A DNA stretch of 64,000 bases from Patescibacteria group bacterium. GTDB lineage: Bacteria > Patescibacteriota > UBA1384 > XYA2-FULL-43-10 > 1-14-0-10-43-13. The notes under the pieces were generated by a model that ran no database searches, was not told the DNA's origin, and worked only from the letters and a program-made list of their open reading frames with translations. Location of the stretch: NCBI GenBank assembly GCA_041649155.1, contig JBAZNP010000002.1, positions 6,640 through 70,639 of the forward strand, given 5' to 3'. Below are positions 38,320 through 41,292 of the stretch, in pieces. Both the position numbers and the translations under genes were made by a program. Numbering within the stretch: the stretch's first letter is position 1; each line of letters opens with the position of its first letter.

Positions 38320-39021
38320 TCAAGTTTTCCTTTGCGATCCTTTGTACGCTATGCCAATCGATGAGAACTCTATCATTTCAACAATGAAATGCTCTTCCAA
38401 CACTCCACAGAAATAACTGGAATTGTATGCTACTGTATCCAAGCCATCGCTCGACACAAAGCGGACACCAGTATTATCGGATATGCATTTGATCTGTTTA
38501 TAACCACAGTTTTGGTAGTACTGTGATCTTGCATGGTTAGCAAAGTCATTTGTGAGATACGAGCAGATTAAAAATGGATAGTGAGCCTTCACAAGGCTGC
38601 TCAAAACCACTGCTGGTTCGCTCATATTTCCAAAACTGTTGAATGGAAATACAGCAAGAACCTTAGCTGAGTCCTGAAGCAGTCCTTCTTTGCACGGAAG
38701 CTCATGTATCATGGCGGCATCGCCTATCTTTATCTGATATCGATCAAAAGATAACCCATATGACAAAATCCTATCTTGGCCATTTTCGACATATCTCTCG
38801 ATAATGTCTATTCCAAGATAGGATTTTTGCTGTCTTACAGCCCAATCAAGATATCTCCCATCCATACAGCCAACCTCAACCAATGTCTCGAATCGGCTAG
38901 CAAGTGATGTAAGCAAATCTTCTTCTGCTATGAGATATTCAGTTATCTCATTGGGGTATCTAGATGGATCCACCAAGCGATCACCATGCCCCGAAGAATA
39001 GAAACCATATGTAGCGAGCAC
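38320..39021 (-). CDS. Putative class I SAM-dependent methyltransferase
   Basis: GTG start; motif-I-like LVEVGCMDGRYL and post-II-like VLAVFPFNSFGN; 233 aa. Confidence 0.5.
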   Translation of the reverse strand: MLATYGFYSSGHGDRLVDPSRYPNEITEYLIAEEDLLTSLASRFETLVEVGCMDGRYLDWAVRQQKSYLGIDIIERYVENGQDRILSYGLSFDRYQIKIGDAAMIHELPCKEGLLQDSAKVLAVFPFNSFGNMSEPAVVLSSLVKAHYPFLICSYLTNDFANHARSQYYQNCGYKQIKCISDNTGVRFVSSDGLDTVAYNSSYFCGVLEEHFIVEMIEFSSIGIAYKGSQRKT

Positions 39022-39033
39022 GTATCACCTCCA

Positions 39034-39690
39034 TCAAGAAACGATCGTAACATCACAGCTCTCTGCTTGAGCATACTTTTCCAGCAACTCAGCAGCTCGC
39101 TCTGCCCCTTCCTTGAGTCCAGTACCAGTGAAAGATATGATTACCATAATAATGCGTTTGGTAATACTGGTTATCATAGCTCTTTCTGAGTCACTAGTAG
39201 GACTGCCATAGGGTCCTTTCGCATCTTTAAACACAGGTAGTTCTGCGATATTAATCGCTTCCTTGCCAATGCCTTTGTAGGATTCGCCTTGTTCGCCAAT
39301 GGTAAAAATAATCGGACCAGAGATGTTGCCAAGATCATAGGAACCAACAGGATGAAGAGTCTCAATTGAAACAAGATTGTTAATGTCTACAACATTATTT
39401 ACCTTGTAAAGACCTTTCCCCTGAAGAATTCTGCGAATTAAAGCCTCGGCGGAACCGCGATAACGAACAGGGTCTTTTCCGAGCCGTCTGTAAGTCTCAC
39501 GTACGGCAGCAATCTCTGGAAGCTGTGCAATGACCTCAATAGAGTGGCTTTTGCCAGTCGATGCGATCTGCTTATCAATTTCTTTCCACAGACCGCTGGA
39601 GTGCTTCTCAACAACAACAGTTGTCTCAACAACTCCAAGTGATAGATTTGGATTTGCTTTCTTAAGAGCCTCGCTGATTGTGATTTCCAT
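39034..39690 (-). CDS. Stand-alone B3/4 domain protein (homologous to the PheT editing domain)
   Basis: Start at MEITISEAL with an AAAGGA Shine-Dalgarno. The sequence RETYRRLGKDPVRYRGSAEALIRRILQGKGLYKVNNVVDINNLVSIETLHPVGSYDL matches the B3_4 consensus (YRPSAEALLRR...LP.IN.lVD.yN). Confidence 0.7.
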   Translation of the reverse strand: MEITISEALKKANPNLSLGVVETTVVVEKHSSGLWKEIDKQIASTGKSHSIEVIAQLPEIAAVRETYRRLGKDPVRYRGSAEALIRRILQGKGLYKVNNVVDINNLVSIETLHPVGSYDLGNISGPIIFTIGEQGESYKGIGKEAINIAELPVFKDAKGPYGSPTSDSERAMITSITKRIIMVIISFTGTGLKEGAERAAELLEKYAQAESCDVTIVS

Positions 39691-39735
39691 AATGTTCCTT
39701 TCTATAAGAAAATATATCTGAGTCATAGCAAACAA

Positions 39736-41292
39736 TCAATCTGTTACTTCGTCTGCTTTCATTATGGCCCTGATCTCGAGAAGTTCTTCGACGGTAGGCA
39801 GTGTGACATTAGGAATATGGTAAATCAACGATGCCTCACCATAGTCTCTCAAAACATCTACATACTCCACCTTTTCAACTGCCCAATTCAGATAGTCGTA
39901 GCCGACACCATTATCCTTTCCTTTCAACGGGTGCTGAACTGCCCAGTTAAAGCTTCTTACAACTGGATTTCCATATCTTTGTTTCCAGCTGGAAACTTGT
40001 TCCAGAATAGCTAATCTTTGCTGCTGACTTTCGCCAAGACCAAAAAGAATAGAAACTCCAACCTTAATCCCAATCTCTGAGTACTCGCTGATCATCTGTT
40101 CGGCTCTCATAATCCATTCGTACTTTCCCACGTCTTTACTCATACCTCCGATTGAGGATGGATCAAATGTCTCAAGACCAACAAAGATGTACTCAAGCCC
40201 TTTAGGTACAAGTTCCGTGATTATCAACTTCTGCTTAATTGCAGTATCAACAGTAAGTTGACCGCCAAACTTGATATCAATAGAGTGGTCTTCCAGTATG
40301 CTATTCAACTTTGTGAGCTGTGAAGTTAATCCGCCAAGAATTATTGAATCCTCAATGAAAGCGCTTGTTCTTCTTCCTGGTGTATCTTCTTTAATAACAT
40401 CGTGGATATCCATCAATTGTCGAAAGAGTCGGTTTGATGAAGTCTTGACTTGCGATAAAGGACCACATACGCTTGTTCGTTCGCTACAAAAGCCACAGTC
40501 GTAGATACATCCCGTGCCCATATCACTGAACGCATGACCGGTTAGAGCACCTTGAAATACATCAAACCCGGTTCCGATTCCAAACATCTTTGCAGGTGAT
40601 GGCAATCGGTCTCGATCAAAAGTTATACCTTTACTAATGATGGTTTTCATGTGACCGTCAGTAACGCAGCCAGCAATCCAGTTACCTGGAATATTAGATA
40701 TGTTCTCGAGCATCAAAGCTGGAGTGATCCAACTATCATTTCTCCCTGCTAAGTCTGCGATTACTTCGCCAACTTTAGCTATCACAAATTCTCCTTCCCC
40801 AGATACTATAAGATCAAACACATTATCGATCTTTCCTTCAGAGATGAGTTTAAGTGGTGAGCCATTATGATGTTTTACGCAAGTTCTGGCTTTGTCAGTG
40901 TAGATAGTTTCACTAGCATGACGACCGCCAAGGACAATGTAGATGCTTTCGCCAAACATCTGTCTGGCTAGTTTTGCACATGCAATTGCTCCTGGAAAAC
41001 ACATTGTCATTGCGCCGATCAAAAGAAGATTAGGCCTTTCTCTTGCAAGTAATTCTTCAAAATACGATGTCTCCTCAGACAATGAATTCATCAACAAGAG
41101 ATTCTTTCTTCGAATTTTCCTTGGCACAGCCCAATTACTGTCACCCCACGCACCTAACTGATTATCAGCTAGGAAAGCGGCATACCTGGAAGCATTATAT
41201 AGGCTCACAGGGTCCCTACTTGTTAAAGAAGTCGTGCCCAGTCTCCCAAAAGGATATTCTGGTGCGGAAATCGCAATAACTCTTAATGACAT
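39736..41292 (-). CDS. B12-binding-domain radical SAM protein (class B-like)
   Basis: CxxxCxxC as GCIYDCGFC. The N-terminal LLLIGAMTMCFPGAIACAKLARQMFGESIYIVLGGRHASE resembles a cobalamin-binding Rossmann module. The stop abuts the B3/4 gene (39736/39735 region); GGGGGG Shine-Dalgarno. Confidence 0.8.
   Translation of the reverse strand: MSLRVIAISAPEYPFGRLGTTSLTSRDPVSLYNASRYAAFLADNQLGAWGDSNWAVPRKIRRKNLLLMNSLSEETSYFEELLARERPNLLLIGAMTMCFPGAIACAKLARQMFGESIYIVLGGRHASETIYTDKARTCVKHHNGSPLKLISEGKIDNVFDLIVSGEGEFVIAKVGEVIADLAGRNDSWITPALMLENISNIPGNWIAGCVTDGHMKTIISKGITFDRDRLPSPAKMFGIGTGFDVFQGALTGHAFSDMGTGCIYDCGFCSERTSVCGPLSQVKTSSNRLFRQLMDIHDVIKEDTPGRRTSAFIEDSIILGGLTSQLTKLNSILEDHSIDIKFGGQLTVDTAIKQKLIITELVPKGLEYIFVGLETFDPSSIGGMSKDVGKYEWIMRAEQMISEYSEIGIKVGVSILFGLGESQQQRLAILEQVSSWKQRYGNPVVRSFNWAVQHPLKGKDNGVGYDYLNWAVEKVEYVDVLRDYGEASLIYHIPNVTLPTVEELLEIRAIMKADEVTD

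Follow-up and report, generated by a model that had tools for sequence, protein, structure and literature searches.

The present analysis concerns a three-gene cassette in a window of 64,000 nucleotides from contig JBAZNP010000002.1 of a Patescibacteria group bacterium (GCA_041649155.1), a member of the Candidate Phyla Radiation (CPR). The cassette (41292..38320) is made up of three same-direction open reading frames (ORFs) on the minus strand, which encode a radical S-adenosylmethionine (SAM) enzyme, a stand-alone B3/4 protein and a VioH-like protein. With a probability that we put at about 0.6, it combines a VioG/VioH-type pair, representing a known pathway to trans-4-methyl-azetidine-2-carboxylate (MeAZE), with a CtdA-like deacylase that protects translation in the producer. 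The components of this proposal are not equally firm. The radical SAM enzyme and the cyclase very likely constitute a MeAZE biosynthetic pair; fold, conserved residues and gene context lead us to favour, with distinctly less assurance, a protective role of the B3/4 protein as a deacylase of tRNA(Pro) charged with MeAZE or with azetidine-2-carboxylate (AZE), hereafter (Me)AZE-tRNA(Pro). The main result is thus a correction, in which the undescribed modification system proposed by the initial annotation of this region gives way to a published biosynthetic pair and a probable resistance gene.

The third gene of the cassette is predicted from its sequence to encode a SAM-cyclising lyase of the AzeJ/VioH family and not the second, SAM-dependent methyltransferase that had been annotated initially. 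Methyltransferase models from Pfam score only about 20 bits on this protein, below their cutoffs. In a sequence search of the PDB the top match is VioH (8RYG; 180 bits, E 4e-52, residues 4-226, 41% identity), followed by AzeJ (8RYD; 70 bits, 30% identity). These enzymes display a methyltransferase fold without carrying out methyl transfer; instead, they hold SAM in a bent conformation in which its own amine attacks the gamma carbon, yielding a four-membered ring and methylthioadenosine (MTA), and they bind adenine through a GxxxG motif described for AZE synthases (PMC11794875). The segment VEVGCMDG of the cassette protein carries precisely this motif (G-C-M-D-G) in place of the GxGxG of methyltransferases, and the ribose-binding aspartate at the end of beta2 is kept as D72 within GIDI (D85 in AzeJ). 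Also retained are Y8 (gating Tyr18 in AzeJ), F127 (cation-pi Phe134), N132 (Asn139), R165 (Arg172) and the Tyr-Tyr pair Y168 and Y169 (Tyr175 and Tyr176). The cassette protein has the methyltransferase-like fold and the catalytic residues (Phe, the Tyr pair, Asn, Arg, Asp) in common with AzeJ, from the azetidomonamide pathway of P. aeruginosa (PDB 8RYD-F), but AzeJ acts on unmethylated SAM, has no radical SAM partner and differs at L136 and T193. At these two positions the cassette protein presents the serine and valine of the VioH type (S129 and V186), and the single active-site mismatch to VioH among the positions checked is T196, corresponding to A195 in VioH and S203 in AzeJ. The family is rare: at E up to 0.001 it accounts for 387 of 1.84 billion cluster representatives.

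The radical SAM enzyme belongs to the NCBIfam family TIGR04434 ('B12-binding domain/radical SAM', rSAM_Pput_1520), which it matches with 599 bits against a cutoff of 550; the Pfam Radical_SAM model yields only 24 bits. A CxxxCxxC motif for the [4Fe-4S] cluster is found at C262/C266/C269 and is invariant in 20 homologues. The AlphaFold2 (AF2) model of the protein has a mean predicted local distance difference test (pLDDT) score of 89.5, and its top PDB folds show the two-domain architecture of cobalamin-type radical SAM enzymes (OxsB, TsrM and CysS, but AprD4 too), with both domains aligned and query-normalised template modelling scores (TMq) of 0.44-0.53. Family name and fold favour a putative B12-type N-terminal domain with predicted cobalamin binding, and together with the cluster motif they uphold the initial assignment as a B12 radical SAM enzyme in all but one respect, discussed below. 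The protein is 51% identical over 514 aa to AWI62632.1 (P0134, Cystobacter sp.). Because this accession directly precedes that of VioH (AWI62633.1) in the same submission, AWI62632.1 is almost certainly VioG.

Three observations on these two enzyme families deserve to be recorded in their own right. A natural fusion of a radical SAM enzyme and a VioH-like cyclase in one polypeptide (P0206, 801 aa) is encoded at 1565-4078 of locus L019, with no B3/4 gene nearby, and three further proteins of 752-896 aa (P0398, P0408 and P0421) bear a VioH-like domain at their C-terminal end. In L146, from a Longimicrobiaceae metagenome-assembled genome, a more AzeJ-like homologue lies near a small tRNA_bind (PF01588) gene without any radical SAM gene (3883-4218 on the minus strand and 5001-5774 on the plus strand). 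Finally, at 6001-7317 of L063 a GNAT acetyltransferase domain takes the place of the B12-type N-terminal domain of the radical SAM enzyme (P0240, 438 aa; 63% identity to residues 194-513 of the cassette enzyme) and is followed by B3/4 and VioH-like genes; this locus could be a decayed or repurposed cassette.

The closest known counterpart of the two enzymes is the VioG/VioH pair of the vioprolide cluster of Cystobacter violaceus, with which the cassette shares two adjacent enzyme families, the VioH active-site residues and the predicted sequence of C4''-methylation, 4-exo-tet cyclisation and MTA release. In vitro, VioH acts on (4''S)-4''-methyl-SAM to give trans-MeAZE and MTA; the 4''R isomer is not converted and plain SAM gives no detectable AZE (PMC12930334). 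Nagano et al. (2026) conclude that the first step, the methylation of SAM at C4'', is carried out by VioG, which itself could not be prepared (PMC12930334). In M. xanthus, MeAZE is formed by the combined action of VioG and VioH (PMC12930334). The combination of azeJ and vioG likewise makes MeAZE in Streptomyces. Judging from the orthology of the radical SAM enzyme with VioG, the cobalamin-type enzyme of the cassette would methylate C4'' of the methionine moiety of SAM to produce (4''S)-4''-methyl-SAM. As suggested by its homology to VioH, the methyltransferase-fold protein would then hold this compound in a kinked conformation, allowing its own alpha-amine to attack C4'', with release of MTA and formation of the four-membered ring of MeAZE.

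MeAZE is an isomer of proline, with which it shares the formula C5H9NO2. AZE is charged by prolyl-tRNA synthetase and enters proteins, and the B3/4 protein would hydrolyse (Me)AZE-tRNA(Pro) in trans, sparing the proteins of the producer. The cassette departs from the vioprolide cluster in its small-genome CPR host, in the B3/4 gene inserted between the pair and in the absence of a nonribosomal peptide synthetase (NRPS) gene. Genes for NRPS, ATP-grasp enzymes or transporters do not adjoin it. With no NRPS or ATP-grasp gene in the vicinity, the pathway may end at the free amino acid and not at a peptide building block, and the compound might serve, for instance, as a toxin of this episymbiotic CPR bacterium.

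The assignment of the second protein to the B3/4 domain is borne out by Pfam (B3_4; 70.7 bits, cutoff 29.3). With its 218 aa it does not qualify as a PheRS beta chain, for the PheT model TIGR00472 reaches 23.6 bits against a cutoff of 402.65 and matches in the B3/4 segment only, nor does it contain a ligase or transferase domain. Its AF2 model (pLDDT 94.8) was matched by Foldseek to CtdA (PDB 9MKL and 9F7E) over its full length (227-230 columns), with a template modelling (TM) score of 0.85, E-values of 1e-15 to 1e-14 and a probability of 1.00; the B3/4 domains of PheRS beta, with which the initial annotation had linked it, fit less well (TM about 0.6). CtdA, itself a stand-alone B3/4 protein, has been characterised as a deacylase of canavanyl-tRNA (PMC10018355, PMC12449066), and the earlier statement that stand-alone B3/4 proteins lack a known function is outdated. 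In sequence the two proteins are only 18-20% identical overall, with a local phmmer match of 31 bits, and the cassette protein is hence not a CtdA orthologue. The phmmer alignment nonetheless places its N105 and G116 on N105 and G116 of CtdA (S. enterica numbering). N105 is the sole residue that CtdA shares with the PheRS editing site, in which the equivalent N254 helps to place the catalytic water, and the CtdA mutants G116H and G116W are inactive (PMC12449066). N105 and G116 are both invariant in 50 homologues and at least 90% conserved in members linked to a complete trio of genes and in solo members alike. The loop GSPTSDSE at residues 162-169 is invariant as well. Overall, the cassette protein has in common with CtdA its stand-alone nature at about 220 aa, the full-length fold, Asn105/Gly116 and a SAEAL-RR motif, and presumably the task of guarding translation from a toxic amino-acid analogue. 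CtdA acts, however, on an arginine mimic on tRNA(Arg), as opposed to the proline mimic on tRNA(Pro) predicted here, and no canavanine genes are found near the cassette.

The gene context of the B3/4 protein was surveyed from both ends. A genome search anchored on the radical SAM family recovered 56 loci, of which 22 contain a VioH-like gene. In 18 of these 22 the B3/4 gene lies between the radical SAM and cyclase genes. The trios are spread over Saccharibacteria, Kerfeldbacteria, other Patescibacteria, Pyrinomonadaceae, Terriglobales, Eiseniibacteriota, two Pseudomonas species and Rikenellaceae, and across these distant phyla the gaps around the B3/4 gene measure 9-45 nt. B3/4 is missing from the other four, which are two actinomycete loci (L016 and L017), the locus of the radical SAM-cyclase fusion and one from Acidobacteria that carries an ATP-grasp gene. 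Two further loci fetched through VioH-like homologues also lack B3/4, one of them beside an NRPS gene (L148) and the other beside an ATP-grasp gene. The co-localisation expected of a self-resistance deacylase is therefore found, as the B3/4 gene sits inside the biosynthetic pair; the charging of MeAZE is assumed here, and that of AZE is taken from the literature.

A second, metagenomic sample was anchored on B3/4 and comprised 49 testable close relatives (45-60% identity), with 31 more too short to judge. It yielded 12 trios and one more cut at a contig end, and in it a VioH-like gene was never found beside B3/4 without a radical SAM gene. A family hidden Markov model and tblastn searches for hidden AzeJ-like genes beside solo B3/4 genes returned none except in L079, where a 41-residue remnant of a VioH-like N-terminus (2162-2284, 46% identity) lies directly downstream of an orphan B3/4 gene. 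This arrangement suggests a decayed cassette that lost its biosynthetic genes and retained B3/4. At 90% identity the B3/4 family matched more than 2,200 clusters, and most of its members are solo, in soil Acidobacteria, Verrucomicrobia-like and other bacteria. A neighbour-joining tree for the most part groups the trio-linked proteins together and places solo clades as their sisters. Two readings of the solo members suggest themselves: they may be orphan resistance genes, or they may indicate that the family substrate is something else.

Relatives of the radical SAM enzyme in other clades lie directly upstream of enzymes that act on SAM or on its methionine moiety, which fits SAM as the common substrate of the family. 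These are AdoMet decarboxylase in Rhizobium (L026-L037, L056), a Cys/Met-metabolism pyridoxal phosphate (PLP) enzyme in the Pseudomonas putida group, Paraburkholderia, Brucella, Pandoraea and others (L022-L024, L027, L032, L033, L039, L043-L045, L055, with ATP-grasp and class-V aminotransferase genes alongside), and a class-V aminotransferase (Aminotran_5)-like protein in SAR324 and some CPR (L021, L047, L048, L052, L059, L062). These TIGR04434 loci may lead to further products of C-methylated SAM; we found no paper containing the term TIGR04434. A comparable logic is known from Orf29/Orf30, involved in methyl-aminocyclopropane carboxylate (MeACC) formation, and from BnvC/Orf5, which make cis-MeAZE: as predicted for the cassette, C4'' of SAM is methylated by a cobalamin radical SAM enzyme before another enzyme cyclises the methylated SAM. 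BnvC and Orf29, only about 23% identical to VioG, generate the 4''R isomer, which has been shown for Orf29 and is a proposal in the case of BnvC. For the cyclisation they are partnered by a PLP enzyme and a DUF364 protein, unlike the AzeJ/VioH type.

The initial annotation regarded the arrangement as one unknown from characterised pathways, but the pair is the VioG/VioH pair (PMC11794875, PMC12930334) and a 'cluster III' combining an AzeJ-like gene, a B12 radical SAM gene and an 'AA-tRNA synthetase' in a distinct CPR clade was reported by Klaubert et al. in 2025 (PMC11794875). Their table lists JAHIRL010000033.1 and KKC00_03595, both recovered here as trios (L015, P0064, P0088). Their 'AA-tRNA synthetase / class I tRNA-ligase' may correspond to the B3/4 gene; the neighbouring genes are not named in their supplementary files (PMC11794875). 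More generally, Millar et al. (2026) have shown that stand-alone tRNA deacylases encoded inside clusters for non-canonical amino acids confer self-resistance (PMC13149037). This tR3D concept is exemplified by BesG, the F-Thr-tRNA(Thr) deacylase of the 4-fluorothreonine cluster, which like the cassette B3/4 protein is a trans-editing enzyme encoded within the cluster. BesG belongs to the AlaX family, the sole family mined in that work, as opposed to the B3/4 family of the cassette protein; the canavanine-cluster deacylase is cited there as a known example, the B3/4 family is not analysed and neither AZE nor MeAZE is mentioned (PMC13149037). The one report of AZE-tRNA(Pro) deacylation that we came across concerns human ProXp-ala, which shows it as a promiscuous side activity, and our literature search found no paper joining 'B3/4 domain' with 'azetidine' or stating that a B3/4 protein deacylates (Me)AZE-tRNA. 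With the radical SAM/cyclase pathway already published, it seems plausible that the novelty of the cassette resides in the deacylase specificity of its B3/4 protein.

Several observations weigh against the reading of the cassette as a MeAZE pair with its own resistance gene. On the biosynthetic side, the Pfam B12-binding model (PF02310) does not match the cassette radical SAM enzyme and in its family gives weak matches to just 2 of 20 members, genes for the synthesis or uptake of cobalamin are absent from the annotated ORFs of the window, no exporter gene adjoins the cassette there, and VioG has never been reconstituted in vitro (PMC12930334). With regard to the B3/4 protein, the residues responsible for canavanyl specificity in CtdA-1 (C166 and Q173) cannot be reliably aligned, as the alignment with CtdA ends at residue 138, and since the biosynthetic pair works in heterologous hosts without B3/4, the protein is dispensable there. 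A further objection stems from the solo members. In the metagenomic sample, 36 of the 49 testable relatives have no radical SAM or cyclase gene nearby, and this preponderance of solo genes in unrelated contexts, amounting to some three quarters of the close family, weakens the claim of specificity. Furthermore, 48 positions show a conservation of at least 90% in trio-linked and solo proteins alike, and the two groups are separated by a single, conservative class-specific difference, so that the family substrate need not be MeAZE. Hence, the B3/4 protein might be a general trans-editing factor for another mischarged tRNA or analogue that travels as a passenger in a MeAZE cassette. We deem this unlikely, because the gene is fixed between the same two partners with short gaps in distant phyla, because the trio-linked proteins fall mostly into one clade, and because resistance genes are often more widely spread than the matching biosynthetic genes, as is the case of CtdA.

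Doubts may also be raised about the chemistry. The cassette enzymes are well diverged from VioG and VioH, their radical SAM relatives pair with quite different enzymes, and Klaubert et al. leave other radical SAM modifications possible (PMC11794875); methylation at another position or with another stereochemistry, ethylation, or the formation of plain AZE or another SAM-derived ring would all give a related amino acid as product. The agreement with the VioH active site at all checked positions but one, including both positions that set VioH apart from AzeJ, makes such a departure slightly less likely still. The position of the B3/4 gene in the middle of the operon might instead point to a biosynthetic accessory that binds 4''-methyl-SAM, stabilises a poorly soluble radical SAM enzyme, hands the intermediate to the cyclase or serves aminoacyl-tRNA-dependent peptide formation. 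The ligand of the B3/4 fold, an amino acid in ester linkage with a terminal adenosine, bears a loose resemblance to SAM, attempts to obtain recombinant VioG on its own failed, and tRNA-synthetase-like genes were read by Klaubert et al. in terms of peptide synthesis (PMC11794875). Nonetheless, both heterologous systems yield MeAZE with no B3/4 gene added, which argues against a biosynthetic role. B3/4 is also absent from pairs and fusions at six loci (L016, L017, L019, L038, L147 and L148), among them the pair adjoining an NRPS gene and both actinomycete loci, and the same protein family, devoid of ligase or transferase domains, is solo in most genomes. A biosynthetic function for B3/4 is consequently unlikely, and the accessory explanation is the least probable of those considered so far. 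There is finally the original proposal of a new system for the modification of a tRNA, an aminoacyl-tRNA or an aminoacyl-derived metabolite. Its guess of an aminoacyl-tRNA target is probably right for B3/4, a fold that does serve as a module binding tRNA 3' ends and aminoacyl groups, but nothing points to tRNA or RNA modification. The supposed methyltransferase belongs to the AzeJ/VioH family with its catalytic residues kept and the radical SAM enzyme is a VioG orthologue; no tRNA genes were found in the window, Rfam (E up to 1) revealed no riboswitch or other RNA element across 37650-41600, and the only PADLOC match was a stray one of 16 bits, with which an anti-phage defence system was likewise rejected. 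We therefore regard a modification system as highly improbable.

The interest of a protective B3/4 protein lies in what it would explain. Proline mimics of the AZE type are long-established poisons of translation, and a dedicated deacylase would account for the survival of MeAZE-making bacteria, provide a function for a large, uncharacterised family of solo B3/4 proteins and extend deacylase-guided genome mining from AlaX to the B3/4 family. It would also suggest that ultrasmall CPR bacteria use an isomer of proline as a weapon. Building on this idea, we tentatively put forward a broader proposal, on which we would not insist: that the B3/4 family represents the first dedicated (methyl)azetidine-carboxyl-tRNA(Pro) deacylase, providing in-cassette immunity to producers and orphan resistance to AZE-type proline mimics in non-producers, with free MeAZE acting in CPR episymbionts as a translation poison against hosts or competitors.

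Coordinates of the cassette and of the adjacent features are compiled in Table 1. The three co-directional genes stand as they were first described, and so does the 12-nt gap between the B3/4 stop and the VioH-like start, which carries a GGAGGTGA ribosome-binding site. The abutment of the radical SAM stop and the B3/4 start applies only if the latter ORF is read from a TTG at 39735. ATG 39690 is the start in the public gene call (P0001, 218 aa) and matches that of all homologues (217-225 aa); with it, a gap of 45 nt remains. The 5' leader of the radical SAM gene shows no unusual structure (z -0.68). The terminator-like hairpin beyond the 3' end is common to the cassette and to the convergent Zn-ribbon pseudogene, and was missed by a consensus terminator scan. 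The window is 100% identical to a Patescibacteria metagenome-assembled genome (P0001, P0121, P0241), and since the housekeeping genes for Obg, IF-2, GyrA, GyrB and CdaA are encoded in it, the setting of the cassette is chromosomal.

Table 1. Position of the cassette genes and of the features flanking them in the window.
Feature	Coordinates	Strand	Description
VioG-type radical SAM enzyme	39736..41292	-	518 aa; putative cobalamin-type N-terminal domain; predicted C4''-methylation of SAM
Stand-alone CtdA-like B3/4 protein	39034..39690	-	218 aa; predicted (Me)AZE-tRNA(Pro) deacylase, self-resistance
VioH-type 4-methyl-azetidine-2-carboxylate synthase (predicted)	38320..39021	-	233 aa; GTG start; class I methyltransferase fold; predicted SAM-cyclising lyase
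Terminator-like hairpin 3' of cassette	38225..38247	-	9-bp G+C-rich stem, then T-rich sequence; region folded z -2.57
Zn-ribbon pseudogene	37898..38205	+	frameshifted relative to intact L007 homologue; convergent with cassette
Intergenic direct repeat, upstream copy	41366..41532	.	167 nt; hairpin with A/T-run flanks and 41-nt block; hairpin z -6.35
Intergenic direct repeat, downstream copy	37725..37831	.	107 nt; upstream of GreA C-terminal-only gene
GreA C-terminal-only gene	37680..37453	-	Pfam 46 bits
GNAT acetyltransferase	36660..37175	-	Pfam Acetyltransf_3 82 bits; 1.1 kb downstream of cassette

Of the two genes noted initially at the 3' edge of the cassette, the GreA C-terminal-only gene and the frameshift in the Zn-ribbon gene are both real, and the Zn-ribbon gene lies on the strand opposite to the cassette. 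Its product reads MKTDKYL...YYQKDAI up to a stop in one frame and continues as ...KRCYLNRIF... in another. In the closest relative, L007, the gene is intact (5896-6240 on the minus strand) and lies upstream of the cassette instead of downstream. The cassette and the pseudogene are bracketed by the two copies of a direct repeat, each with a strong hairpin. The copies are 98% identical over a 47-nt hairpin with A/T-run flanks and 83% identical over a 41-nt block, and the upstream copy contains a 65-nt insertion; a 34-nt core occurs exactly twice, against 0 occurrences expected by chance. The repeat and the different placement of the Zn-ribbon gene in L007 are compatible with an earlier rearrangement or insertion, which agrees with the horizontal spread noted by Klaubert et al. 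(PMC11794875); the repeat may be the trace of such an event. N-acetyltransferases near AzeJ-like genes are also reported by these authors (PMC11794875). The GNAT gene downstream of the cassette is a possible cassette member and second detoxification gene, but it has no homology to the GNAT domain fused to the radical SAM protein of L063, is not conserved beside other trios and has one weak match among all fetched loci (33 bits, L050). A 461-aa membrane protein upstream of the cassette (42937..41552) was discarded as a candidate exporter or partner. Pfam and NCBIfam return no match for it, it is common to L007 alone, and it looks like a case of lineage synteny and not like a part of the system.

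Elsewhere in the window, overlapping genes for a FabA-like dehydratase (199 aa) and a class I methyltransferase (252 aa) are encoded at 43484-44804 on the plus strand, divergent from the gene for the 461-aa membrane protein and upstream of a seven-transmembrane (7TM) histidine kinase gene. A second, unrelated B12-binding radical SAM gene (51542-52939 on the minus strand; Pfam B12-binding 54 bits, Radical_SAM 61 bits) is followed by four small ORFs without Pfam matches (49384-51603, minus strand), and its presence implies that this CPR genome encodes at least two cobalamin-type radical SAM enzymes. Lastly, two ORFs without Pfam matches (56181..55648 and 55647..53632) are preceded, at a distance of about 108 nt, by a cyclic di-GMP-I (c-di-GMP-I) riboswitch at 56289-56383 on the minus strand (Rfam RF01051, 54.5 bits, gathering score 35).

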